Shown piece by piece: positions 1 through 53,190 of a stretch of DNA of 64,000 nucleotides. The position numbers and the translations under genes are program-made. The stretch covers positions 233 to 64,232 of IMG/VR virus record IMGVR_UViG_3300037479_000437, one strand, 5' to 3'. The number at the start of each line of letters is the position of its first letter. The stretch's first letter is position 1. The notes beneath the pieces are model-generated. The model was not told the origin of the DNA, ran no database searches, and worked only from the letters and a program-made list of their open reading frames with translations. This DNA is from a virus.

Positions 1-14
1 CAGGCGAATATTAT

Positions 15-689
15 GTGTGCCGTGACGGGGTCATCAGAGATATTTCCAGAGAAATAATTGCCTGGGGCTTTGGTGGTTATCTGCCGTCGAATATCTGGCT
101 GGGCGCTTCGATTGAAAACATGCAAACAGCCAAAGAGCGCATTCATCATCTGGTTGCAGCTACAGCGCCCGTGAAATTTCTGAGTTGTGAACCCTTGCTT
201 GACTGGCTGGATTTATCATTCTGGTTATTCAAGTGCAGAGAATGTCAGCAGCGATTTGACTATTCAGCGGGATTCTCGCTGTTTACACAAGAAAGCGGAC
301 AGGGCGAATGTTCTCTGGATATGCACGAAATAATCCCGGCGCCCTTGCTTGACTGGATTATCATCGGCGGCGAATCAGGCTTGCATGCGCGGCCTTTCAA
401 TCTTGATTACGCGCTGGCTTTGCTCACTCAATGTCAGCAGGCCGGAGTGCCGGTGTTTGTCAAACAAATGGGCGCAGTGCCAGTCATTTCAGCAAACGCC
501 TGGAAAGCACTCGACAATAAACCCGCACTGAAAGCTCGCATTCATTACAACATTCCAGCCGGGTATCTGGCTTTGAAATTCAACGATCCGAAGGGCGCTG
601 ATCCGGCTGAGTGGCCTGCTGAGTTTCGCATTCAGCAGTTCCCGCAACCCAAAGCCTGGAAAGACATGCCTGGAATTATTGGGACTTGA
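15..689 (+). CDS. Phage Gp37/Gp68 (DUF5131) family protein, probably 5'-truncated by the window edge
   Basis: Motifs IWLGASIEN, KFLSCEPLL, LDWIIIGGESG..ARP and VPVFVKQMG are typical of this family. Confidence 0.85.
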   Translation: MCRDGVIRDISREIIAWGFGGYLPSNIWLGASIENMQTAKERIHHLVAATAPVKFLSCEPLLDWLDLSFWLFKCRECQQRFDYSAGFSLFTQESGQGECSLDMHEIIPAPLLDWIIIGGESGLHARPFNLDYALALLTQCQQAGVPVFVKQMGAVPVISANAWKALDNKPALKARIHYNIPAGYLALKFNDPKGADPAEWPAEFRIQQFPQPKAWKDMPGIIGT

Positions 690-702
690 GAAAGGATTTT
701 CT

Positions 703-1296
703 ATGCCTCAGGAATTAAGCACCTCAATCAGATTACTGATCAATGCCGGAGTCAGTCGGCAATTTATGCAAAAGGTGTTTCAGAGTGAATCAATCTCTTT
801 CAGCCGACGTAATTTCAACACTCCGATTCCATTCAGTAAAATGCTCGAATATTGTGATCCTGATGATGTTATCTGGTCATTCAATGCAGTACAGCCGGAA
901 CAAAAATCACAAATTGAAAAAATCGCCAGACTGTTTGCCTGTGATTGTGCGGAACATTTACTGATCACTTTGTCTGAAGAAGAGATGAGTTTTCGCAGTC
1001 AGGCCGTCATCAATGAGGCTCGCCGGTTTGCGTCTGGCCTGAGTTCTGCTGATGAACTCAAAAAGGCAGGTAATGCAGCAAAACAAAGCGCACAGGAAGC
1101 GATGAATCAGGCGGCTGATGACTGGAATGAAATAACCAGGAATTGCTGGCTGGCGCGACGGAGCGCCTTCTGGTGTGCAGCGGATAATGCAATAGATGCC
1201 GCTCTTGAGTCTTCCGCATGGTCATTGATAGATAACGATGAGCAGGAATGGCAAAAACAGACGCTGCTTGAATATTTCAACGGAATCAGAAAGTGA
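703..1296 (+). CDS. Phage hypothetical protein with Imm5-like helical domain
   Basis: ARLFACDCAEH...INEARRFASG...ELKKA followed by an Ala-rich repeat. Confidence 0.55.
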   Translation: MPQELSTSIRLLINAGVSRQFMQKVFQSESISFSRRNFNTPIPFSKMLEYCDPDDVIWSFNAVQPEQKSQIEKIARLFACDCAEHLLITLSEEEMSFRSQAVINEARRFASGLSSADELKKAGNAAKQSAQEAMNQAADDWNEITRNCWLARRSAFWCAADNAIDAALESSAWSLIDNDEQEWQKQTLLEYFNGIRK

Positions 1297-1508
1297 AACT
1301 TTTGAGGAAAGCTATGGGAAAACAGAATACACCAAATCTGAGATGTTACTGCTGTAGTTTGGAAAGTGACGACGACGGCGTGCAAATGTGCAATTGTGTG
1401 GTCGCAACCTGCAATTTCTGCGCAGATTGCGCGGATTGTTGCGGGTGCTTTAAGGGTGATTGCCGATGCGAAGACAGTTCCAGTAATGAGGGTGATTATG
1501 ATGAATGA
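1293..1508 (+). CDS. Small Cys-rich hypothetical protein
   Basis: Overlaps neighbours operon-style; many CxxC pairs. Confidence 0.45.
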   Translation: MKLLRKAMGKQNTPNLRCYCCSLESDDDGVQMCNCVVATCNFCADCADCCGCFKGDCRCEDSSSNEGDYDE

Positions 1509-1803
1509 AGAATTTCACCTTGAATTTATCGAATGTCCGCAGTGCCTGAATATCCAGGATGCGCCAGTCGGGCATACGCAGCCTGTCTACAGCTACACGC
1601 ATGATTGTCGGTACTGCGGCTATACAATCCTGGAGTCTGAATGGAATAATGCTGTTCCAACTGCGGAATGCGCATACCATCTCGGCGTCGCTTATGCCTT
1701 GCGGGCTATGCTGCTTCCTCAGGAAGCTACGCCTGCCCGGATTGAAGCCGTTCTTCAGACAGCAAACAGTCTGTTACAGAAAGTGAAAGAACAAAACCAA
1801 TGA
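1498..1803 (+). CDS. Zn-ribbon hypothetical protein
   Basis: CPQC...CRYCG pairs; GAGG RBS-like sequence before ATG at 1498. Confidence 0.55.
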   Translation: MMNEEFHLEFIECPQCLNIQDAPVGHTQPVYSYTHDCRYCGYTILESEWNNAVPTAECAYHLGVAYALRAMLLPQEATPARIEAVLQTANSLLQKVKEQNQ

Positions 1804-2333
1804 TGAAACGTCATATCAGAGAATCAATTGATAAACAAAAAGAAAAACATCAGATCAGGCAATTGAGAATCACGTCCAGTCCCAAAGGTTACCAGCCCGA
1901 AGACTGGGCAGCACCTCTGACTGAAGGAGAATTGAATTATCTGCGGCTGTACATCAAACCTGAACTGATGGAAAAAATCAGACAACTCAATGAAAGCTAC
2001 CAGGCCCGACATTACACTTATGCCGATCTGCGCCTGGATGCGCTTGCGCAGACAATCCATTCAGTCGAGGCAGTCCGGCTGACTCAGCGTGAACTGCACA
2101 TGTGTCGGCTCTTGATGACGCATGCGCCTGATCCGGTTCCCTTTCAGGCTCTGATTGAAGCCTGGAAATTTGAGGGGGTAACTGAAGCAGGGCATGTCAT
2201 TGCAGTTTATGCTGCCAGTTTGCGCAAAAAAATACGCGCTGCCGGATCATTCCTGCGGCTATGCGGTGATTCAAAAGCCGGTCTTTGTTATTTTTCCGCT
2301 CCGGCAGAACGATCACCAGCAAGAGTAAAGTGA
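1800..2333 (+). CDS. Winged-helix DNA-binding protein (OmpR/PhoB C-terminal-like)
   Basis: LTQRELHMCRLLMTHAPDPV...VIAVYAASLRKKI resembles the Trans_reg_C pattern; no receiver domain. Confidence 0.65.
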   Translation: MMKRHIRESIDKQKEKHQIRQLRITSSPKGYQPEDWAAPLTEGELNYLRLYIKPELMEKIRQLNESYQARHYTYADLRLDALAQTIHSVEAVRLTQRELHMCRLLMTHAPDPVPFQALIEAWKFEGVTEAGHVIAVYAASLRKKIRAAGSFLRLCGDSKAGLCYFSAPAERSPARVK

Positions 2334-2365
2334 AAAAAGAGGCGCAATTGCTGAATTGCGCCTCT
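2332..2365. terminator. Intrinsic terminator hairpin between the convergent arms
   Basis: Perfect 12-bp stem agaggcgcaatt-gctg-aattgcgcctct (2338-2365) preceded by an A run, i.e. a U tail on the minus strand. Confidence 0.8.
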
Positions 2366-2434
2366 AAGCGATAACTGACGGATACTGCCCAGTGTCCGTC
2401 AGTCCCGCCGCGCCCCGATGAATGACGCGGCAAG

Positions 2435-2476
2435 CCTGCAATTTCCCGCCTGCAATGTCCCGCCTACAATGTCCCG
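2435..2476. repeat. Three 14-nt tandem repeats overlapping the tail-tip stop codon
   Basis: cctgcaatttcccg / cctgcaatgtcccg / cctacaatgtcccg. Confidence 0.8.
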
Positions 2477-5337
2477 CCCTTGCCATAAGGATCATCAACA
2501 ATAATCGAATCCGTCAAAGCCCAGGCGATATTTGAGGGCTGAGCGGCGCCTGCCAGTTCGATCATAAATTCATATTCAGTTTCAGGTGATAATCCGACTT
2601 TGGTATAGGTGGTCAACCCGCCAGACAATGCAATCTGACTCCAGGTTACTGTTCCGGCAATGCGCCAGTTGAGCGTCACGGCGCCGCTGTTGCCATTATT
2701 TCCCCAGGCCAGCGCAATCGAATACGGCCCGGTCGGTTGCGCGGTCAGTTGCGCCGGATCGCCAGCGGTATTGGCAGGCATAGTTGCTGAAGCGGCGTTT
2801 GACCATTCGGAATACTGAATTCCGGTATTCCATTTGTTTCTGACCCGATAATTGTGCGTTGAACCTGCACCGACCGTCCGGGTAAATTCAACCGTTGTGC
2901 CTGGCGTCAACGTTTGAATGACTGAGCCATCTTCTTCTACTTCGACAGAGTCATTATCTCCGGCGTTGCGTGTCCAGGTCAGTTTGACCTGCGTAGCTGA
3001 CAGGGGAACAGCGGAAAGACTGGCCGGGGCGCTGCGCGTCGTTTCCACGACAATCGGCTGATTCAGTGTCCGCACATAAGCGATGTTTGAGCGAAACTCG
3101 CCGTTGCTGCTGCGCCAGATGGCAAAATCATAAATTGAATCAGGCTGCAACCCGGAAGACAGATCAACGAGAAAAGTGTTTTCTGCCGGGCCAAGCGACG
3201 GGATGAATGGCGCAACGGGTGGAGTCAGCCACGTCCATCCTTCATAACCAATCAAGGGATGTTTGATAAAGACAGCCTGATTGACTCCGGCGTTCTTTGC
3301 CGGAGTCCAGGTCAGTCTGACTTTGCGATCACTGACCGGCACGGCAGTCAGATTCTGTGGACATTCATCAGGGTTGAGAAACGCCGGAAGTTCGTCAAGC
3401 AACTCACCGGCGACGCCTGACCAGGGGCGCCAGGTAATAAAGCGCGGTTGCGACCAGCCAAAAACATTGAGCAGGCGAAGCTCGAAAACTGCTTCCTCAC
3501 GCGGGTCAGCATTCGCGCGCAACAATACGCCTCCACCGGCTTTGCCCTGCCCGGTAAAGGGGTATTTGTTGTCATAGACCAGATTGCCGAATTTGTCATA
3601 AACTTTGAGCCATGCGGATTCCAGACTATCTGCGTTTGCCTTGCCATCAGCGTTGTCAGTTTCCAGATAGAGTCGAAAACCCATTTGCAGGCCATTCTCC
3701 AGAAGTTGAATATCATCATATTTGACTTTGGTGATACGCAGGCGATCAAAAACGCCAAGATCACGCCCCCGATAGCGCCCTGAGGGATCGAGCGCGCGAC
3801 GGGAACGCGAACGCGCGGCAATGCCGGGTGAAGCCAAAGGCGGCAGATCGCTGGTAATGACTGCCTGTACCGGCCCATGCAATTCATCACTGTAGAAATT
3901 TTCATTGTAGATTTGCAGTTTGAAACTGCGTAAGTCTTCATTATTCGTCACCGGCATGAAGGCTTCTTCTCTGACCAGCATTCTGACTGGCGCACGCTCG
4001 CGCAGGCCGAGTGAATCAAAGCTGATTTCGACAACATCACCTTTGGCTACCCGGTAGCTGTCGCCTTGCCCTTGTAATGAGGCTAGAACGTCAAGATCGT
4101 AATTTTCAATCATCAGCGTGCGCAAAGCCCGCTGCGCCTGCGATTCAGTCATGACGCCCCATGCCAGCGGTTCATCCAGTGGCCGCTCAAAGCCTTTTCC
4201 ACTGTCGCGGATTTCACTGATTTCCTTTTCCGTAAAATACAAATCGTCAAGATTGCGAAAGCGCACGCGGAGAACAGTTCGCCGATCTTCCGGGCGAATC
4301 CGACTGAACGTCACCGAATCAGTCACGATATTGGAAACGTTTTCAGAGTCAGGATCGCAACGGAACTGATGGACGACCGGACGAGTCGGAACAGACAGGA
4401 ATTTCACCTTGCCATTGACATCCTGCCACGTACAACCAGGCGCCAGCGCCATCAGATAAATGAACGCTTCGCCTGCCGGAACATTCTGAAAAGCCACGTT
4501 AGCCAGAAAACGTGGAACATATCCCCAGCGAAAATTTACTTCCGTCGCCGCTGGCGGCGCAGCAGTCAGAGTGATTTGTATGTCACTGTCTACGCTTTGA
4601 ATTTGAAATCCCTGCCCGGCTATCCAGACCGTTCCTGTCCATGACGATTCAAATTTCCGACCAGTCTTCCAGGTGACAATCTGATTGTTCACGTCCACTG
4701 TTGCTGTTCGTCCACCGATCCCCGGATTCCAGGGAATCAATTCTTCGCAGCGTTGCCGAAAAGCGAACCACGAAGCGAAATCAATCCGGCTTTCCGGCAG
4801 TTTCATCCGGCGCAGCAGAATATCCAGAGCCACGCGCGCCAGGTTCGCTGAATAACTGTCACCCTGCCAGTTTCCGCCTGCGTCATAATCCGGTACTTGC
4901 AAGGTGCGATAGTAAACTTTTAGGCGTGAGGGTTCTTCTTCACCTTCGCTGAAAGCCTCTGAGAGCAGTAATTCAAGATAAGCTGAACCGGAGAAAGTAA
5001 AAGCCAGAGTCGGATCGTAAGGCGCCTGCCAGAAATAAGGCGTACCCTGAATCGGGTCATCGAATCCGGCTGACAACTGCCCAGGATGATATTTCCAGTT
5101 CCGCGCGCCCTGGGCGTCAAATTCCGGGATTTCCTCGCCAGCGTAATAGACCGTCAGGGCGGTTTCTTTCCCGGCGATGATTTGTGAATCACAAACGCCT
5201 TCGCTGAGTAACGCAATCAATTTGATCCGATTTGTAGAGGTATCGCGCGCATAAGCTACCGTCGCGCCTGCGGTGATATGCTGCCCGTAAGGCAGCACAA
5301 CGCTTGTTCCGGCAATTTTATCAGAGAGTATCGGCAT
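2464..5337 (-). CDS. Tail tip / host-specificity protein (gpJ-like) with C-terminal fibronectin type III domains
   Basis: Position after the hub gene; YSANLARVALDILL, FLANVAF and WQDVNGKVKF tail-tip motifs; three Fn3-like repeats (e.g. PASLSAVPLSATQVKLTW...YRVR). Confidence 0.8.
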   Translation of the reverse strand: MPILSDKIAGTSVVLPYGQHITAGATVAYARDTSTNRIKLIALLSEGVCDSQIIAGKETALTVYYAGEEIPEFDAQGARNWKYHPGQLSAGFDDPIQGTPYFWQAPYDPTLAFTFSGSAYLELLLSEAFSEGEEEPSRLKVYYRTLQVPDYDAGGNWQGDSYSANLARVALDILLRRMKLPESRIDFASWFAFRQRCEELIPWNPGIGGRTATVDVNNQIVTWKTGRKFESSWTGTVWIAGQGFQIQSVDSDIQITLTAAPPAATEVNFRWGYVPRFLANVAFQNVPAGEAFIYLMALAPGCTWQDVNGKVKFLSVPTRPVVHQFRCDPDSENVSNIVTDSVTFSRIRPEDRRTVLRVRFRNLDDLYFTEKEISEIRDSGKGFERPLDEPLAWGVMTESQAQRALRTLMIENYDLDVLASLQGQGDSYRVAKGDVVEISFDSLGLRERAPVRMLVREEAFMPVTNNEDLRSFKLQIYNENFYSDELHGPVQAVITSDLPPLASPGIAARSRSRRALDPSGRYRGRDLGVFDRLRITKVKYDDIQLLENGLQMGFRLYLETDNADGKANADSLESAWLKVYDKFGNLVYDNKYPFTGQGKAGGGVLLRANADPREEAVFELRLLNVFGWSQPRFITWRPWSGVAGELLDELPAFLNPDECPQNLTAVPVSDRKVRLTWTPAKNAGVNQAVFIKHPLIGYEGWTWLTPPVAPFIPSLGPAENTFLVDLSSGLQPDSIYDFAIWRSSNGEFRSNIAYVRTLNQPIVVETTRSAPASLSAVPLSATQVKLTWTRNAGDNDSVEVEEDGSVIQTLTPGTTVEFTRTVGAGSTHNYRVRNKWNTGIQYSEWSNAASATMPANTAGDPAQLTAQPTGPYSIALAWGNNGNSGAVTLNWRIAGTVTWSQIALSGGLTTYTKVGLSPETEYEFMIELAGAAQPSNIAWALTDSIIVDDPYGKGGTL

Positions 5338-6744: not shown

Positions 6745-7019
6745 TCAGGTAATTCGACTGTTTTTCCTTTCAGGTCATGCCAGCAGTCACCGAGAAACTG
6801 AATTTTGCCATCGGTAATGAATGAGTGGCATTGCCATTTCGTATTCCTGTTGACCATGATGCTTGGACTGACTGTGGGGCGTTCTGGCTTCTCATTCCAC
6901 AGCCAGCATGGTTCCGGGCCGGAGACTCTGACCCAATGGTCAGAGCGACAACCGGGGCAATGGAACAGATAAGCCTCGCCCTCAAATGTCGGATCGTTCG
7001 CTGGTTCAAATTTCGCCAT
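6729..7019 (-). CDS. DUF6527-like small Cys/His protein
   Basis: FHCPGC..H, W.WN....PTVSPSI, CHSFITDGKIQFLGDC.H.L.G.TV.LPD. Confidence 0.75.
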   Translation of the reverse strand: MAKFEPANDPTFEGEAYLFHCPGCRSDHWVRVSGPEPCWLWNEKPERPTVSPSIMVNRNTKWQCHSFITDGKIQFLGDCWHDLKGKTVELPDWESI

Positions 7020-7037
7020 GTTTCTCCCTGGTCAGAA

Positions 7038-7144
7038 GTCAATTTCGGCGTTTTTCAGCGTCGTGATTGCATTTTTATCCGGGGCGCAACCCCTTTTCCT
7101 GATCTGACGGCAAAAATGCAGCCACGACGCTCTAATGCGCAAAT
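7038..7144 (-). repeat. Copy 1 of a dispersed ~105-nt palindromic element
   Basis: 20-nt arms at 7057-7076 and 7112-7131 (18/20 complementary) around a 35-nt core; similar to the copies at 51174 and 61950. Confidence 0.8.
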
Positions 7145-7160
7145 TCTGCGCCCAGGGTTA

Positions 7161-10100
7161 TCAGGTCAGAATTGACTCAATATCTCCGGCCAGACCGGCC
7201 TGGCCCTGTTTGCGGACATCTTTGCGGACAACACGAACAATACTGCGCCGCCCTTCCGAAGTATTGTTGATTACGTTTGTCACGATCTTTGTCTGGTCTG
7301 CCTGCCCGATTTCAAAGGCATTGTTGACGATCAGCGTAATATTCACCGGTGTTGGAATAGCTGCGGCAATGTCGGTCGCAGCGGCTGGCGCGGGAATCGT
7401 CAGGGGCGCATTGAAGGAGGAAGCAGAGAAAGAATTATTGAATGACAAAGCGCGTGCGCGTGAGGCTTCAAATACCAGCCCGGCCAGGCGTGTCTGATCT
7501 GCCGGACTGACCACCAGTTCATTCCCGGTGACGCGGATCAGCCGCTCCAGTGGCGCAGTCAGTCCACCGCTGGCAAAGCGTGGTAATGCGGTCTGAGTGA
7601 CTCTGTTGCTGCGGCTGGAAATCGTTTCCGGTTGAGTCGCGCGTTGGAGCGTCGCGCCGGGTTGCTGCGCCGCGTCAGCCGCGCGATCATTGACGATTGA
7701 TCTCTGATCGAAGCGTGTTATCACAGATGAAGTCTGATTAACGATCTGCTTGTTTTCTTCCTGACTGCGCCTGGTTTCATTGAAGAGAGAATGCGCAGAC
7801 TGACGCTGAACTTCGGATGACTGAGTCAGATTTTCATTCTGTCTCAAATTGATCTGATCAATCGTTGTTTCCCGGCTTCGTTCTTTGCGCGTCAGGGCTT
7901 CCCGGACTGAAGTTGTCTCAATCGGCGCGCGGCGCGAGCGGGAAGTCGTCAGAATCAAATCAGCCAGATTTGCCTGTTGATGCGGATTCAGCACGAGTTC
8001 ATTGCCAGTGACGCGAATCACTTTATCGTCGCTGCCGTCAAATACGCCCGGCACGCGCCCGGTAAACCCGCCTGAAGCAAATGTCGGTAATAATAAATCA
8101 CTTACTCCCCGGCGTTTCTGCTGTCGTTCGGCAGCTTCTTTGAGCGGCGCAACATAAACGCGATCCACATCAGCCAACTGGTTTTTCAGACGACTTTCCC
8201 GAACTGATTTTGTTTTGATCTGATTGAGCGCGGCTACAGTCTGCTGCCGCAACTGCGCCGCTTCGGCCAGCGCCTGGGCGCCGTCTATCCGGTCAGCATT
8301 GACCAGGCGCGTCAGTTCAGCCAGGCGGTCGGCTTCAGCGCGCCAGATGGCATCGGCATTTTTCTCATCTGTTTTTCGCTGTTTTGCCCGGCCCAGGAAA
8401 AAGCTTCCAATCAGCAGTCCGATTCCGGCAATAATCGTAATCGGATTGGTCAGCAGGCCGAAGGCAGCAGAACCAAGAATTGCCGCATTCGTTCCCCCTA
8501 CACCCAGGCCGGTCAACAAGCCAGTAATTGCGCCTGTTCCGGCAATTCCGGCAAACGCTGAAGCGCCGAGCAGCAGCCCGCCTGCGCCGCCCAGGATTTT
8601 GCCCGCCGTGCTTTGCCCGCCAAGTTGCGTTCCCAGCGATAACCCAAGCAGAGGCGCCAGGGGAGCCAGGCCCTGAAGGAAAGAACCGCCCGCAATTGCT
8701 CCGCCTGCCGTTGTGCCAGCCTGCGCGACAAAGGGCGGCGTGCGGGCCAGTTCGGTCAGTCTCGACTGACTCAGAAAAGCCTCAGTCAAAGTCTGCGCTG
8801 TGCCTGCTGCGCCGCCAATCCCCCCAATTCCTCCAATCGCTGCGCCCTTCGCATTGCGCGCCAGCGCAGCCGCCAGGGTTGCCGCTACGGGGGCAGCGGT
8901 GGCGATATTTCCGCCTGGCTGTCCGCCGGGTCGGAGCAGGCCGGCCAGTGCCGCAATCGGATTGAAGCCCCCGGTTGCGCCTCCTGCGCGCGCGCCGCTG
9001 ATCGCTGACAGGGTTTGCGCAAGCTGCTGCGGCGCGACAAACGGCGGAGTTTGAAATCCACCTGCTCCGCCGCCGAGAATTGCCTGCAAGACAGAGCCGC
9101 CACCAGCCTGTTGTCCGCTCTGTCGCGGCGCGAGAAATAACGAAGCGATTGAGCCGATCAGCCCGCCGCCCCCGCCGAAAATCCCGCCTCCGCTACCGCC
9201 ACCAGCTACGCCCGTCAGCACGCGCGTAATCAGATTGCGCGTAATCGTTTTGATCAAATCTGCAACAATTTCACCGAAGAAGCCGAGTTTGGCCGTCAGT
9301 TTATCAATTCCGCGCTCAAGCACGCCGATAAATGTCTCATACGCTTTGATCTGCGCGTCGGCGACGGCTTCAGTCAGGCCCTTTTGTGCCGCCAGGTGTT
9401 CCAGTAACTTCCGGTTCGCTCTGTCCTGCCGGAAAATCTGATTGTCAGCAAGCTGCTGCTGAATTTTTTCCTGACTGGTCAGTTCAGCGCCCAGATTGCG
9501 CAACGCGGCAATCCGTTCATTGATCTGCAACAAATCGCGCTCGGCTGTTTCAGCTTCTGCGCCGCCCAGGGATTGCTTTTGTTCGAGCAACTGGCGCTGT
9601 AAGACGACTTCTTCGAGCAGGACAGTGCGCAGCCTGCGCCGGGCTTCAATCTGCGCGTCAGCGGCTTCTATTGCGTCAATCTGGCCGCGTGACTGAGCGC
9701 CGCTGATCTGTTCTTCCACGATATTCAGAGTTGTTTGCGTGGCGTCAAAACGTAACTCACTGCGTTTGACCTGCTCATTCAGATCAAAATGAGCCAGGCG
9801 TAGTTCCTGCATTTTTTCGATCAGATCAAGAATGTCGCGGCGTCCGGCCTGCGCGGCGGTTTTGACGGCTTCGGCATATTCTTCCGCCAGCCGCCGGTTG
9901 AAGGATTCCTGCTTTACTCCGGTCAGTTCAAGGTACGCAATCCGGGTCTGTTCGATTGAGCGGCGTTCCTGCTCTTCAGTCTGGCGCCGTGCGGCTGCAT
10001 TCGCTTCTGGCAAGGCTTGTTGTTTTTCGCGCAGGACAGCACCCTGACTGCGCAATTGTGTGGCTTGCGTTTCAAGGCGCAATATTTCCTGTTCTTTTGC

Positions 10101-12839
10101 CCGGCGCGCGATTGCCTGTCTGATTTCATCTTCGATGGCCGTGACAGCCTGCCGGTTTTCACGAATTTCAAGCGTCAGACTTTCCTGCTCAATTTGTAAT
10201 TTTCTGGTGTAATAACTCTGCGTTGTAATGATCGTGGCGTCATAGCTGGCTTTGAGCGCAGCTTCACGGTTGCGCAATTGCTCACGGATCAACGCGGTTT
10301 CAGCCGTCAATTGCGCTTTGGTCAATTCGACCTGCGCACGGGCCAGTTGTGCAGCTTCTGATCGCTTTGCTTTGGGTTCGCTTGCGATCCCCTGGGATGG
10401 GAGTGACGCAACCGGCGAATCGGTTTTTGTGCGGAGGAAATCACGAAACGCAAAGGCGTTACTGACTCGCTGCTCTTTCTGCCTCTGCGCAGTCTGTTGA
10501 GTTGTCCGACGAAAAGCGGCGCCAATCAATGCCTCAACTGCCAGGCCGACACCGGGGATGAATTTATCAAGAGTGCGCAACAGACTGCGCCCGATAGCTT
10601 CGCCAATGTTCGTTCCAGCCAGTTCGCCCAGGCCGACGAATTTCAAAAGCTGATCAAACAGGTTGCGCACAATTTCAAGCGTAGAGACAACACCCTGCGC
10701 AGTAATGTTTTTGATCGCTTCCCAAACACGGATTTGAATGCGCTGAATTGTTTCTCCGGCTGCCTCAAAGTGCCCGGTCAGTAATTGCAGAGCCAGCGTA
10801 ATATACTCACCGATAACTCCCCAGATGTTGCGAATATATTCTGCTGCAAAATCAAAAGCCGGAAGCAGGACGCTTTTGACAATGCCTGAAGCGCGTTCAA
10901 AGATCGTCGTGATTTCCGCCCAGACACGCCCGATGAATTCCTGCACCAGTGGGCCATTCTCACGCCACCATTCGGCAATCGCGTCAAAGCGTTCGGTTAC
11001 AAAAGCCGCGATCTGCGCTGTCAGTTCACGAATGCCGCCAAAGTTCGTCTGCCATGCCAGATACAACGCTGCCGCTGCTGCAATCACTACTCCAATCGCA
11101 ATGCCAATCGGGCCAAGCGCGGCTGAAATCGCTGTTCCTATTCCGGCCAGGGCGCCGCCTGAGCCAAACAATGCGCTGATTGAAGAAATCGCAAAGGCAA
11201 GTTGTCCGAACAATAACAACGCCGGGCCGATAGCGGCCAGTAATCCGCCGAAAATAACAATCGCCTGCTGCACAGATTGCGGCAGAGCGCCGAATAAGGC
11301 GCTTAATCTTTCAACTCCCTGCGCCAGCTTTTCAACTGCCGGTTCAATCAAGTCAAGAATGCGCAGGCCAAGCGGACGTAACGCGACAGTAATTCGGTCA
11401 CGCATTTTCTCAAAGCGCGTCGGAATACTTTCTGTGACACGTTGCAAACCGGGCACTTCAGTTGCCGCCTGAGCAAAAGCCGCAAAGAATTCATCAACCG
11501 TGTCAATGCCCAGCTTGCGCGCCTGTTCGCGGATGGCTTTTGCGTCCAGGGGTGAAGCGACTTTGAAAGTGCGTTTGATGATTTCGCCACCAAGCGGCGC
11601 CGCGCCAACCAGTTCCTTCAAATCAGGCCGCTGGAAATCACGAGTGACAAGCTGCACAAGGTTTTGAGTAAACCGCGCCGGATCACGCAGCGGCGCAACA
11701 GCATTCAAGCGGCCAATTGCGGGCAGAATACGATTGATCGTTTCCTCAGTCGCTCCGGCAACACGCAGTTGCACGTCCAGTGTTGAAGCGAGTGCAGTAG
11801 TCAGACCAGGAGTTTTCTGCGCCAGCGCAACCAGGGCGCGAAAACGCGCTTCTGCCCCTTCTGCGCTCCCGATAAACGCGCGCAGCACATTGACGTTGCG
11901 ATCAATCTCAGCCGCGCTTTTGACTGCTGCTGCGCCCAAAGCTACCAGCGGCGCCGTCAGGCCAATGCTCAACGTTCGTCCGGCGTCTGTCGCTGCTCGC
12001 CCAAACGCCTGAAGCCTTGTTCGTGAATCGTCAAAACCAGCGTTGCGCCGCGCGGCAGAAGCAATCAACTGATCATCAAGAGCATTCAATGCCTGACCGC
12101 TGCGTCCGAAGGCGGCGCCCAGCCCGGCAGCATCAGTGCCCAGCGCGACATTCAATCCCTTCAGCCGTAATGATGATCTTTCCACATCACTCAGCACGTC
12201 GCGGAAGCGTTGCCAGGCCGGGGCTGCCCGCGCCGCCGCCTGTTGCGCATCAATGCCCAGCGCGGCAAAATCTGCGCGTAAACGTCGCGCCTGTTCCGTG
12301 TCCTGTGTTGTCGCAAGAATGGCGCTTTGCTGAAAATTCGCAGCTACAGTTCCGCGTCCGGCAGTGACTGAGCCGATGGCGGATTGCGCTCGCGCCAGGG
12401 CAGGCTGAATCTGCCCGACCCGTTTGATCAGATCAGTAAACGCCTGCTCAGGGCGCAACAGCGCCTGCTGAATATTGACGCCCAGATCATTGAATGAGGA
12501 TTTGAGTTCGCGGGCAAAGGCAGTTGATTTCGTTGAGGCTTCAACCAGACTGGCCTGAAAGTTGGTAAACAGCCCGCGCGCATTGAAATCCGCGCCAACT
12601 CCGCTGAGGTTGAATTGCAGTTGTTTGAGTGCGTCAGAAAAGCCGGTCAGTCTTGTATTGCGCGCGATTTCAGCGGCTGAACCGAAGCCGCGCTGCGCCG
12701 CCTGCGCCATCGCTGCGGCAGATTGTGCTGAACGATCAAGTTCCGCCGTCAGGTTACGCGCAGCCGTTGCCATGCGCCGCGCCCCTGCCTCTGCGTCAGC
12801 CGTACTCCACCGGATTTCAAAAACAATGTCCTCGGCCAT
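7161..12839 (-). CDS. Tape measure protein
   Basis: 1892 aa, Ala-rich and helical; N-terminal TMP motif (GRTLSIGLTAPLVALGAAAVKSA), hydrophobic mid-region, long coiled coils; follows the chaperone genes. Confidence 0.92.
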   Translation of the reverse strand: MAEDIVFEIRWSTADAEAGARRMATAARNLTAELDRSAQSAAAMAQAAQRGFGSAAEIARNTRLTGFSDALKQLQFNLSGVGADFNARGLFTNFQASLVEASTKSTAFARELKSSFNDLGVNIQQALLRPEQAFTDLIKRVGQIQPALARAQSAIGSVTAGRGTVAANFQQSAILATTQDTEQARRLRADFAALGIDAQQAAARAAPAWQRFRDVLSDVERSSLRLKGLNVALGTDAAGLGAAFGRSGQALNALDDQLIASAARRNAGFDDSRTRLQAFGRAATDAGRTLSIGLTAPLVALGAAAVKSAAEIDRNVNVLRAFIGSAEGAEARFRALVALAQKTPGLTTALASTLDVQLRVAGATEETINRILPAIGRLNAVAPLRDPARFTQNLVQLVTRDFQRPDLKELVGAAPLGGEIIKRTFKVASPLDAKAIREQARKLGIDTVDEFFAAFAQAATEVPGLQRVTESIPTRFEKMRDRITVALRPLGLRILDLIEPAVEKLAQGVERLSALFGALPQSVQQAIVIFGGLLAAIGPALLLFGQLAFAISSISALFGSGGALAGIGTAISAALGPIGIAIGVVIAAAAALYLAWQTNFGGIRELTAQIAAFVTERFDAIAEWWRENGPLVQEFIGRVWAEITTIFERASGIVKSVLLPAFDFAAEYIRNIWGVIGEYITLALQLLTGHFEAAGETIQRIQIRVWEAIKNITAQGVVSTLEIVRNLFDQLLKFVGLGELAGTNIGEAIGRSLLRTLDKFIPGVGLAVEALIGAAFRRTTQQTAQRQKEQRVSNAFAFRDFLRTKTDSPVASLPSQGIASEPKAKRSEAAQLARAQVELTKAQLTAETALIREQLRNREAALKASYDATIITTQSYYTRKLQIEQESLTLEIRENRQAVTAIEDEIRQAIARRAKEQEILRLETQATQLRSQGAVLREKQQALPEANAAARRQTEEQERRSIEQTRIAYLELTGVKQESFNRRLAEEYAEAVKTAAQAGRRDILDLIEKMQELRLAHFDLNEQVKRSELRFDATQTTLNIVEEQISGAQSRGQIDAIEAADAQIEARRRLRTVLLEEVVLQRQLLEQKQSLGGAEAETAERDLLQINERIAALRNLGAELTSQEKIQQQLADNQIFRQDRANRKLLEHLAAQKGLTEAVADAQIKAYETFIGVLERGIDKLTAKLGFFGEIVADLIKTITRNLITRVLTGVAGGGSGGGIFGGGGGLIGSIASLFLAPRQSGQQAGGGSVLQAILGGGAGGFQTPPFVAPQQLAQTLSAISGARAGGATGGFNPIAALAGLLRPGGQPGGNIATAAPVAATLAAALARNAKGAAIGGIGGIGGAAGTAQTLTEAFLSQSRLTELARTPPFVAQAGTTAGGAIAGGSFLQGLAPLAPLLGLSLGTQLGGQSTAGKILGGAGGLLLGASAFAGIAGTGAITGLLTGLGVGGTNAAILGSAAFGLLTNPITIIAGIGLLIGSFFLGRAKQRKTDEKNADAIWRAEADRLAELTRLVNADRIDGAQALAEAAQLRQQTVAALNQIKTKSVRESRLKNQLADVDRVYVAPLKEAAERQQKRRGVSDLLLPTFASGGFTGRVPGVFDGSDDKVIRVTGNELVLNPHQQANLADLILTTSRSRRAPIETTSVREALTRKERSRETTIDQINLRQNENLTQSSEVQRQSAHSLFNETRRSQEENKQIVNQTSSVITRFDQRSIVNDRAADAAQQPGATLQRATQPETISSRSNRVTQTALPRFASGGLTAPLERLIRVTGNELVVSPADQTRLAGLVFEASRARALSFNNSFSASSFNAPLTIPAPAAATDIAAAIPTPVNITLIVNNAFEIGQADQTKIVTNVINNTSEGRRSIVRVVRKDVRKQGQAGLAGDIESILT

Positions 12840-43393: not shown

Positions 43394-43798
43394 TCAGCGG
43401 CGCGCAGGTTTCCAGGCGCGATCCAGGAGTGCGCCGTTGAAGGATTGTTTGCCGGAGCCGTCCGCCTTGCCTGCCACGCTTTCTTCTTCACTTGTTTGCG
43501 CGCTGTTGAGGGCATCCGGCGCATGGATTTCAGGCTCCGGTAAATTCTCCGACTCAATCAATTTTCTGCGCCGCCCTTTGCGCCAGCCACGCGGGGGCGG
43601 ATCGAAGGCCGCGAGCGCGTCAGCCGGGATCAGCCAGTATGCGCCGCCCGGAGTTTGTTCCCGGTATGCGCCGGGAATGGCGCCCTGGCGCAGGTGATAG
43701 AGCAGAGCCGGGCGGGAAAGCGGGCGCTCGCCCGTCGTGCGCCATCGCTTGAGGGCTTCAGTAGTCGTCAGCCAGGTTGTTCCAGATTTTTCGCTCAT
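43394..43798 (-). CDS. HTH DNA-binding regulator (excisionase/MerR-like)
   Basis: WLTTTEA...SRPALLYHLRQG.IPGA......YWLIP; divergent from the early promoter. Confidence 0.7.
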   Translation of the reverse strand: MSEKSGTTWLTTTEALKRWRTTGERPLSRPALLYHLRQGAIPGAYREQTPGGAYWLIPADALAAFDPPPRGWRKGRRRKLIESENLPEPEIHAPDALNSAQTSEEESVAGKADGSGKQSFNGALLDRAWKPARR

Positions 43799-43905
43799 TT
43801 CACGGGCAAAAATAAATAAAAGCCCCTGAGAAGTAAAATTCTTCGCACGCAACCGATTGAAAACAAAGCAAATATAAATTATTTCAAAAAAACTTTATCT
43901 TGTAT

Positions 43906-43934
43906 TTGACGCATAAATCAAAAGGGGATATTAT
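43906..43934 (+). promoter_or_regulatory. Sigma70-type early promoter
   Basis: TTGACG-N17-TATTAT with an AT-rich upstream tract. Confidence 0.8.
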
Positions 43935-43940
43935 TATTTC

Positions 43941-44540
43941 GCAGTCGAGAGAGATTGACATCACGGAAGCGAAACCCGAAGCGGATTAACAAGTAGCTGA
44001 CGTGGTGAGTTGATTGAAAATCAAATTCGAGCAGACAAGGGCCGTAGGGAAACCCGGCGCAGAAGGGATTAAAAAGTAGCTCTTCGGAGTGAAACCCGGA
44101 GCCGGAAATAACAAGTACCCGCCGACGCCGTAATCAATCGGCATACGGAAGGCAGAAGGGCCATCAGACAGTCGTGAGGCTGGCGGAATCTGTTCGGGCG
44201 TGGGAATTACGGGCACAACGCAAAATAATTGCCTGAACGCTGGCACAACGTCGCCGGAAAGCATTCCGGGACAGACGCGGGCGAGCGCAGAGACTGAGGC
44301 TGTCACTCAGAGGGAAATACGAGGCGCAGCGGATTTGAATCCGCCCACACGGAAGCGCGTCACACATTCCCGAAAATAATCTGTCAGTGAAATCCTGCGC
44401 AGGCGAACTCCCCTGAGGAAATAAAAAGTAGCCGCCAGGAAATAAAAAGTAGCTGACAGGCTGCTGTGTTACTGAACCCCGAAGCGGAATAATAAGTAGG
44501 CGACACAGGAAGGCGAAACAGAAGCTCACAGCTTCTGTCT
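43941..44540 (+). ncRNA. Candidate structured leader / ncRNA with internal repeats
   Basis: No convincing plus-strand ORF; six GGA(A/T)TAA(C/A/T)AAGTA-type motifs, GNRA/UUCG hairpins and a terminal hairpin at ~44518-44538. Confidence 0.5.
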
Positions 44541-44906
44541 GATCGGCACGAGCAACTGATCACTGATGAAGCCTGCTCAATCATGCAATCATGCATGCAA
44601 TTCAACCGGAGAAAAATCATGACGCACAAAAAAGCGAAAGCCGCAAAAACACACGAACCTGACCACGAGAATTGCTCCGGGCTGGAGCCATACCACCTGC
44701 TCATGCGCGTGCAGGTCATTGTCGAAGGGCAGCAGGCTCCGCCGCAGCGCGAAAAAAAGCCGCACACGGAAATGTGTTGCACCGGCCTGCGGGAGTTGGA
44801 GAGGGCTTTGATCGCTCTTTCTCGCTGAAGAGGCAGGGCAATTCTGATTTTCAGCCCGCGAAGTTTTCCAGTGTGAGCGCACACGCGGGCCAGAAACAAT
44901 CATTGA

Positions 44907-52565: not shown

Positions 52566-53190
52566 CACGCCCAGCCGGGCTTGGCCCGGCTGGGCGTGGT
52601 AAGGTAAGGAACCAGGCGCGGCCTGGGTTGAGCCAGGCCAGGTCAGGCATGGGTTGCGGCAGGCTCCGGCAGGGCTTGGATTGTGGCGTAGCACGGCAAG
52701 GTAAGGCCTGGTGTGGCAGGGATTAAGGTACGGCCCGGCAGAGCAGGGCCTGGTCAGTCGAGGCTTGGATTAAGGCGAGGCAGGCTTTGGTATGGCAGGG
52801 CAAGGCTCGGTTCGGCAAAAGCAGGGATTCAGGCCAGGCAAGGCTTGGCAAGGCGTAGTATGGCGGGAATTGAGGCAAGGTAAGGCAAGGCGTGACCGGG
52901 TAAGGCTTAGCAGGGATTGAGGCCCGCTTAGGCGCGTCGTGGTTAGGCTTGGCGAGGATTGAGGCACGGCTTGGTAAGTCAGAGCATAGCTCGGCACGGA
53001 CTCAGGCAGAACCGGGCAAAGCAGGAAATGGATTGCGGTCAGGCGAGGCGTGGCGCAGCATTGCAGGGTATGGATTGAGGCAAGGCGCAGCGAGTCAAGG
53101 TCGGGCTTGGCCAGGATTCAGGCGCGGCAGGAGTTGGCCCCGGCGAGGCAAGGCAGGGAATAAGGCACGGCGCAGCATGGCAAGGATTTA
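52566..53190 (+). repeat. GGY-NN pentamer array punctuated by GGATTNA-type heptamers (candidate guide-RNA array)
   Basis: Manual parse: 13 heptamers bound 12 units of 4-10 pentamers (modal unit 42 nt); 15-bp hairpin at the 5' end. Confidence 0.9.

Follow-up and report, generated by a model that had tools for sequence, protein, structure and literature searches.

Hammerhead ribozymes in phage transcripts have reportedly been known since 2011, with their purpose left open. The hallmark of the type II class is a pseudoknot between loop I and nucleotides 3' of stem II (PMC3088659). The element described here shares with the type II hammerheads (RF02276; Perreault et al. 2011, PMC3088659) the CUGAUGA core, the GAAA and GUC elements, the topology and the pseudoknot, and it likewise lies within a phage polycistronic transcript. 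It differs from them in that an additional A follows A9, stem III has 9 bp and the score is below Rfam detection and, unlike the known type II hammerheads, it ends a long leader of modules which are related to its own 5' half.

In its proposed mode of action the leader can be compared to the CsrB/RsmZ sponges, which are likewise RNAs of several hundred nucleotides with many copies of a short binding motif among small hairpins. However, the repeat in the leader is not a bare GGA loop but a module of two helices, 31-80 nt long, in which about 18 positions are fixed, the 3' end of the leader would be made by a ribozyme and not by a terminator, and GGA is not enriched, so that membership in this group is unsupported. 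The modules also bear similarities with the sarcin-ricin or loop E (bulged-G) motif, where strands of AGUA and GAA lie opposite each other beside a Watson-Crick helix. Judged by eye, the AGUA end of an invariant 9-mer appears to face GAA beside the outer helix of the module in the required orientation, while the loop is much larger than in the known motif and asymmetric, with 4-5 nt facing 11-13 nt. Overall, we propose that an early phage RNA released by a ribozyme serves as a multivalent binding platform, and for this whole chain, function included, we estimate a probability of roughly 0.4.

Results and discussion

The leader locus

The window, i.e. the whole 64-kb stretch of DNA that was analysed, holds nearly all of a 64.6-kb uncultivated viral contig. 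The phage looks siphovirus-like. Its minus strand carries tail genes and a gene for a tape-measure protein, and its plus strand the genes for early functions and replication. An AT-rich divergent promoter region separates a minus-strand gene for a 134-aa protein, which starts at 43798, from the first ORF of the plus strand, with its ATG at 44619, and downstream of this region there are about 680 nt without a credible ORF. The gene calls in an independent assembly of the same phage leave an identical gap of 820 nt. The locus has the following features:

43394-43798, minus strand: divergent 134-aa gene, the sole conserved neighbour of the leader
43906-43934, plus strand: sigma70-like early promoter with 10/12 matches and a 17-nt spacer; predicted start near 43941
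43941-44539, plus strand: predicted non-coding leader RNA of about 599 nt, between the predicted start and the cut site of the hammerhead
44540-44618, plus strand: short 5' UTR of 79 nt remaining on the early mRNA after the predicted cleavage, with a ribosome-binding site, then ATG 44619
44619-44828, plus strand: first early ORF

The preliminary description of this DNA had placed a near-consensus promoter just upstream of the leader, and the sigma70-like site is found there; it is also present, with unchanged spacing in the alignment, in L133, the one related contig that carries the leader. From this promoter we infer that transcription would start at about 43941. The scan for terminator-like sites after the promoter, which extended to 44900, found none. 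The absence of a convincing plus-strand ORF from the leader, noted in the same description, was borne out by the comparison with L133, in which ORFs of neither strand are kept, including the sole plus-strand ORF of at least 50 aa (44200-44379). The plus strand of the leader folds better than shuffled sequences (z -3.4), with z -1.45 for the minus strand (20 shuffles each). The stretch is non-coding and conserved on one strand in a second phage.

Over its N-terminal 74 aa, the product of the divergent 134-aa gene shares 47% identity with that of the gene at the equivalent position in L133. The protein reads by eye as a possible excisionase or MerR-type HTH protein, and it has no match in Pfam or PHROG. 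A second promoter-like site (43933-43961, minus strand, 9/12 matches) faces this gene and overlaps the early promoter back to back, a possible switch region. The first gene after the ribozyme is wholly different in the two phages (44619-44828 in the window, 3515-3939 in L133), although the leader is kept. Leader and divergent gene appear to behave as a cassette ahead of variable cargo.

Repeats and module architecture

The degenerate motif GGA, 1-2 nt, TAA-N-AAGTA is present in six copies between 43983 and 44500, all on the plus strand, and in no copy on either strand in the rest of the 64 kb; for a looser form of the pattern 0.38 matches are expected by chance. The preliminary description had given the motif positions correctly (about 43971, 44050, 44091 and 44474, with tandem 3' halves at 44417/44438), and the small hairpins that it listed are all present (cUUCGg at 44082-44087, ccggaa-agca-ttccgg at 44254-44269, gcggatt-tg-aatccgc at 44329-44344 and a hairpin at 44518-44538). 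The 9-mer UAANAAGUA is the same in 15 of 15 copies, six in the window and nine in L133, except at its free position, and every one of these 9-mers has its own upstream GAAA(C) strand. The copies in the window belong to the following modules (those in L133 carry the letter V):

43959-44007, plus strand: module U1, with outer helix 43959-70/43996-44007, GAAA at 43971, inner hairpin and 9-mer 43987-95
44043-44084, plus strand: module U2, with 9-mer 44070-78; a UUCG mini-hairpin links it to U3
44085-44123, plus strand: module U3, with 9-mer 44109-17
44399-44436, plus strand: module U4, nested inside U5, with 9-mer 44422-30
44380-44460, plus strand: module U5, with outer helix 44380-88/44452-60, GAAA at 44389 and 9-mer 44443-51; U4 lies in the loop of its inner hairpin
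44464-44508, plus strand: module U6, with outer helix 44464-73/44499-508 and 9-mer 44490-98; it directly precedes the hammerhead

Each module runs from the outer helix through the 5' GAAA(C) strand, the inner hairpin and the 3' strand back to the outer helix. The 3' strand consists of 1-3 nt and the invariant UAAYAAGUA, and in each of the 15 copies a GGA precedes the 9-mer at a distance of 1-4 nt. The inner hairpin always opens with C-C/G-G, followed by a third pair that is G-C, C-G, U-A or G-U, and its loop ranges from 3 nt to a whole further module. There are three such nestings (U5 encloses U4, V7 encloses V6 and V9 encloses V8), two of which are reproduced in minimum-energy folds. The outer helix has 2-9 bp and a different sequence in each module. 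The units are 31-81 nt long with spacers of 0 to about 260 nt and hairpins of variable sequence, while about 18 loop positions per module are invariant in the 15 copies over about 30% divergence. No Rfam family matches the modules at E values up to 10, and in the literature the 9-mer strings were found in primers only.

The array is new as far as Rfam and our searches go, and it is known from two genomes. A type III antitoxin RNA or an RNA anti-CRISPR repeat mimic was considered and rejected in view of the unit lengths, spacers and variable hairpins given above. A PreQ1-I-like hairpin with an A-rich tail was rejected for want of an Rfam match, DnaA boxes, a parS half-site and a K-turn were considered by eye and dropped, and the single weak Rfam match, to a frameshift element at 15 bits, was regarded as noise.

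The GGA triplets

The preliminary description had counted 19 GGA on the plus strand versus 5 on the minus strand and had proposed a CsrB/RsmZ-like sponge for the GGA-binding host protein CsrA/RsmA. The count is right, but its significance is lost against dinucleotide shuffles (n=1000), which contain on average 15.1 +/- 2.8 GGA and reach 19 in 119 of the 1000 cases; the asymmetry follows from the base composition of the plus strand, which is 61% purine and 15% T, G-rich and C-poor. The GGA that regularly precedes each of the 15 9-mers would suit CsrA, and so would additional conserved sites (types ACGGA(A/U)GG and CAGGAAGG) and the 19 plus-strand triplets as such. However, the GGA of the module forms the 3' arm of the inner hairpin and does not lie in a loop, the invariant 9-mer and the GAAA strand are left unexplained by CsrA, and the leader has neither a match to the CsrB/Rsm families of Rfam nor a terminator. 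A CsrA sponge is in our opinion very unlikely.

Evidence for structured RNA

The 10-nt flanks of each module pair with their own partners at a mean of -8.65 kcal/mol, compared with -5.24 kcal/mol for non-cognate flanks. This was equalled in none of 20000 permutations overall, in 56 of 20000 for the window alone and in 47 of 20000 for L133 alone. With a covariance model built from four seeds, eight more copies are recovered, every one of them in plus-strand orientation; the rest of the 75 kb searched gives no match below E 1.3. Pairing extends to 88.5% of the cells in the module alignment; shuffled alignments give 81.5%, with 1 of 500 shuffles reaching the observed value, and controls with slid partners 2.5-60%. 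The covariation score is 0.21 against 0.11 for shuffled alignments (again 1 of 500), a value which rests on paralogous copies and few events in the two genomes that carry the module.

The individual modules vary in strength. U1 appears in the minimum-energy fold (z -2.4), scores 55.7 bits with the covariance model and has a cognate flank duplex of -10.5 kcal/mol. U6 scores 49.3 bits, and one of its outer pairs is U-A in the window and G-C in its L133 counterpart V9. The nesting of U4 in U5 is reproduced in the minimum-energy fold (z -2.96), with nine contiguous pairs in the outer helix of U5; U4 scores 22.3 bits (E 0.005), and its ortholog V6 keeps both helices, the middle outer pair being G-C in U4 and A-U in V6. 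U2 (19.0 bits, E 0.033) and U3 (20.2 bits, E 0.017) are orthologs of V2 and V4, and in all four of these the outer helix is weak. Single modules are not unusually stable, with z values from -3.0 to +1.2.

One inner hairpin contains a G-U pair which would become a C-A mismatch if read on the opposite strand. The nesting, the matched half-sites, the G-U pairs and the strict orientation on a single strand argue that the repeats are RNA and not duplex DNA sites, and that they are structured RNA modules is very probable. The alternative at the DNA level would be iterons of a replication origin near the AT-rich stretch at 43800-43940, or operators for the neighbouring HTH-like protein. The repeats are all direct, two copies are only 21 bp apart, an AT-rich tract adjoins them, and the sole conserved neighbour reads by eye as a DNA-binding HTH protein, all of which would fit. 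On the other hand, the copies are spaced by 83, 39, 313, 21 and 47 bp with no helical phase, complementary cognate flanks and nesting would be meaningless for a duplex site, G-U pairs are present, and the array runs directly into an RNA ribozyme to which it is related. Such a DNA element is therefore most improbable.

The relative that carries the leader

L133, a viral contig in IMG/VR, was found with a DNA pattern derived from three copies of the repeat. It has four exact and five further copies, which sit downstream of an equivalent promoter. The genes that it shares with the window have about 70-76% nucleotide identity, and its leader aligns with that of the window in blocks of 68-74% identity separated by indels of 2, 19 and 32 nt, which are not multiples of 3. 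RNAalifold on the two leaders predicts 126 pairs, of which 27 are compensatory. The covariation in a related phage which the preliminary description had proposed to look for is thus present in the stems, the pseudoknot and the modules.

BLAST of the leader against deposited phage genomes gave no match, and searches with the flanking 380-aa and 134-aa proteins returned no close relative. A first loose DNA pattern yielded chance matches only, as did a strict pattern in collections of metagenomes and genomes; when relaxed and applied to viral contigs, the pattern returned L133 alone. Among 50 relatives selected by their AAA ATPase (at most 55% identity) the motif was absent by regex and k-mer scans, and also by the module covariance model in the 40 loci to which this was applied. 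Two of the contigs with chance matches, L162 and L139, are coding sequence and an unrelated AT-rich satellite, respectively. In L129 (a locus with a 42%-identical homolog) the promoter is directly followed by an HNH-like gene, with no leader between them. L139, a 1308-nt metagenome contig, has on its minus strand an AT- and purine-rich repeat with a period of about 200 nt and words of the type GTAAGAAGTAA, and it matched the search pattern twice by chance.

The L133 record is classed as a provirus in IMG/VR. Its tail-fibre gene directly adjoins the counterpart of the 134-aa gene, in the opposite orientation to that in the window (window 2464-43223 compared with L133:1-1844), which points to an inversion of the structural block relative to the early block between the two phages. 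A distant phage contig, L130, encodes a CsrA-family protein (PF02599) at 10567-10758 and also carries a 30%-identical homolog of the 380-aa early protein of the window.

The hammerhead at the 3' end of the leader

Directly after U6 follows a sequence that we assign to the type II hammerhead ribozymes, with these predicted parts:

44511-44578, plus strand: type II hammerhead ribozyme, by orthology to L133:3400-3465 and a core read by eye
44511-14/44571-74, plus strand: stem II, an open stem
44515-18, plus strand: GAAA of the core
44518-38, plus strand: stem III hairpin of 9 bp, in which A44518-U44538 is the A15.1-U16.1 pair
after C44539, plus strand: cut site, the GUC ending at C44539
44540-62, plus strand: stem I hairpin, loop-closed
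44563-69, plus strand: core CUGAUGA, then an extra A at 44570
44550-54 with 44574-78, plus strand: pseudoknot of 5 bp from loop I to the 3' tail

The ortholog at L133:3400-3465 matches RF02276 (Hammerhead_II) with 45.0 bits, above the cut-off of 37. The window copy gave no score against Rfam at E values up to 10 and stays below the gathering cut-off. The Rfam scan suggested in the preliminary description thus leaves the modules without a family and finds the ribozyme by way of its L133 copy (45.0 bits, RF02276). The unconstrained minimum-energy fold of 44503-44582 is a three-way junction with stems I and III capped and stem II open. Stems I and III differ in sequence between window and L133 with the pairing kept, and the pseudoknot of L133 likewise has 5 bp, with one exchange from A-U in the window to G-C. 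The conserved core, the stem topology and a pseudoknot of at least 4 bp, which define the type II class, are all present in the window copy, but the class also has no insertion between A9 and the 10.1-11.1 pair, where the window copy has the extra A44570, which is absent in L133. The same A insertion is found in one viroid hammerhead, which cuts only moderately slower (PMC3705267). As judged from sequence, the identity as a hammerhead is strong for L133 and is based on orthology and the core read by eye for the window copy.

The terminal hairpin at about 44518-44538 had previously been taken as a plain hairpin; it is present, but as stem III of the type II hammerhead. The proposed cut after C44539 would give an RNA of about 43941-44539, which is almost exactly the stretch (43941-44540) that the preliminary description had proposed as a discrete, structured and internally repeated non-coding RNA of about 600 nt at the start of the early transcript. 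That proposal is well supported by the conservation and covariation with L133 and by the ribozyme at the 3' end, and we consider the release of a discrete RNA by the hammerhead to be likely.

RNAalifold also pairs 44458-44462, upstream of U6, with 44570-44574 in competition with stem II, and the end pair of this helix is A-U in the window and U-A in L133. In the predicted structure such a helix could hold the ribozyme inactive or gate the cleavage. A second long-range helix, 44013-18 with 44578-83, also has one swap. Cutting of the modules in trans by the hammerhead was considered and rejected, as its arms form closed hairpins and, by eye, the bases adjoining its core show no complementarity to the 9-mer.

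The ribozyme also bears on the suggestion, made in the preliminary description, of a put/nut-like leader that modifies RNA polymerase for processive antitermination. The leader lies directly after the early promoter, and the hairpin followed by an A-rich box in each module loosely recalls boxB/boxA. However, nut and put RNAs act while tethered to the polymerase, and severing by a ribozyme before the first gene works against such tethering, so that this idea is a poor fit with an RNA that gets cut off. We know of no precedent for 6-9 copies in a nut/put-like leader, and no terminator-like site follows the leader in the scan to 44900. We give antitermination very little credence.

Relation of the modules to the ribozyme

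The module layout resembles that of a type II hammerhead from which stem I has been deleted and in which the core has been changed, and the module model weakly matches the 5' halves of the hammerheads in both phages (10.9 and 10.5 bits). As the counterparts of G5 and G8 differ, we read the modules as probable relatives of the ribozyme rather than as active hammerheads. A module that derives from the hammerhead, with its loop as a binding pocket (an RNA-only device for counter-defence or takeover), or one that forms a minimal self-cleaving class of its own, is a doubtful extension of this reading.

In a stricter catalytic version the modules would be hammerhead-derived, stem-I-less motifs that cleave or ligate themselves and chop the leader into small RNAs. 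The layout parallels the hammerhead order of stem II, GAAA, stem III, junction strand and stem II, the module model has the weak matches just mentioned, and an invariant internal loop is typical of small ribozymes. New self-cleaving classes have also been found beside known ribozymes. Against catalysis, the G5 and G8 equivalents are changed, the modules lack stem I, which positions the scissile bond, a comparison with the known ribozyme families gives no match at E values up to 10, and the helices have only 3-4 bp. We regard catalytic modules as quite improbable.

Ribozyme-ended leaders in distant relatives

Self-cleaving ribozymes were also found at the early regions of distant relatives, which were identified by way of their AAA ATPase (at most 55% identity) and all lack the module:

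L177, 2816-2888 and 4106-4173: two Hammerhead_II ribozymes, 44.2 and 42.6 bits, with a leader of about 200 nt before the first
L171, 4676-4773: Twister-P5, 39.5 bits, with a leader of about 370 nt
L182, 5224-5283: Twister-P5, 46.5 bits
L128, 3048-3101: type III hammerhead, complete by eye, 25.1 bits, E 0.005, below the cut-off, with a leader of about 440 nt

Where the sequence was read, the common design is a promoter, a non-coding leader of 200-440 nt, a self-cleaving ribozyme, a ribosome-binding site and the first early gene. The ribozyme class varies among the relatives, while the position is constant. The presence of different classes in one position suggests that the release of the leader from the mRNA is itself what is selected.

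These relatives can also be used in favour of a leader that acts only in cis, in which the hammerhead trims the mRNA to a defined 5'-OH end in the manner of an insulator and the released piece has no function, while the modules shield the untranslated RNA from Rho and RNases or tune the timing of the ribozyme. The unrelated leaders of 200-440 nt in the distant relatives also end in ribozymes, so that the cut may be the conserved feature; the window leader is G-rich, C-poor and without a terminator, and the alternative helix with the A-U to U-A swap competes with stem II beside U6. However, about 18 invariant positions in 15 copies over about 30% divergence go far beyond what shielding or spacing needs, and most of the modules lie 100-550 nt from the ribozyme, too distant for gating. 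A purely cis-acting leader therefore seems to us rather unlikely.

Proposed mechanism and function

In the multivalent platform that we favour, host RNA polymerase would start at about 43941 immediately on infection, or on induction, and the modules would fold while being transcribed. The hammerhead would then cut co-transcriptionally after C44539, freeing an RNA of about 599 nt with a terminal hairpin and a 2',3'-cyclic phosphate at its 3' end. The early mRNA would be left with the 79-nt UTR and, going by hammerhead chemistry, a 5'-OH. The freed RNA would display many copies of one invariant purine-rich loop, and this multiplicity leads us to suggest, tentatively and at somewhat less than even odds, a function as sponge or scaffold. 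It is tempting to speculate that the RNA, as a multivalent decoy or sponge, captures a single partner early in infection. This might be an RNA-binding protein of the host; a small ligand would be less likely. Neither CsrA nor Hfq nor RNase E is clearly indicated by the invariant GGA, the GAAA strand or the AAY-AAG triplets. Of the four hypotheses in the preliminary description, a new large non-coding RNA with repeated AGUA/GAA modules is the best fit.

In the doubtful extension of this reading mentioned above, in which the invariant loop is a specific binding pocket, the multi-copy decoy could soak up a host protein of defence or RNA metabolism, and conceivably a nucleotide used in immune signalling. 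On the same view, ribozyme-released leaders could form a widespread class of early phage effectors that has gone unrecognised, as the ribozyme at this position differs among related phages. The ribozyme described here would have a clear job, which is to end a long, conserved and organised non-coding RNA at the start of an early operon. The module, previously undescribed and present in 15 copies, has a hammerhead-related layout and can nest in itself, and it is a compact candidate for an RNA sponge or for a new small functional RNA fold in phages.

The VIPR array and other minor observations

The phage has its own VIPR guide array at 52.6-53.2 kb, punctuated by GGATTNA heptamers. The heptamers at 52720-53190 (GGATTAA, GGATTGA, GGAATAA and others) resemble the GGATTAA or GGAATAA that immediately precedes the 9-mer in 9 of the 15 modules; GGATTAA itself is present in 6 of the 15. 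The leader contains no GGY-NN pentamer tract, the VIPR guides have no match in the leader (their best matches are elsewhere, most with several mismatches), and the L133 record, which is incomplete, has no Vipr match. The leader was accordingly rejected both as a VIPR guide-RNA array and as a guide target, since only the 7-nt resemblance of GGATTAA is left, and this resemblance between array and modules is probably due to chance.

Two of the relatives have conspicuous stretches of their own. In L181 at least 22 tRNA genes stand in a row at 1-3909, upstream of the early region. In L200 many repeated 8-mers (type GGCGAGG / GGCGTGGC) fill the stretch 6854-8163, which lies upstream of the AAA ATPase and looks like another GGY-NN (VIPR-like) array.
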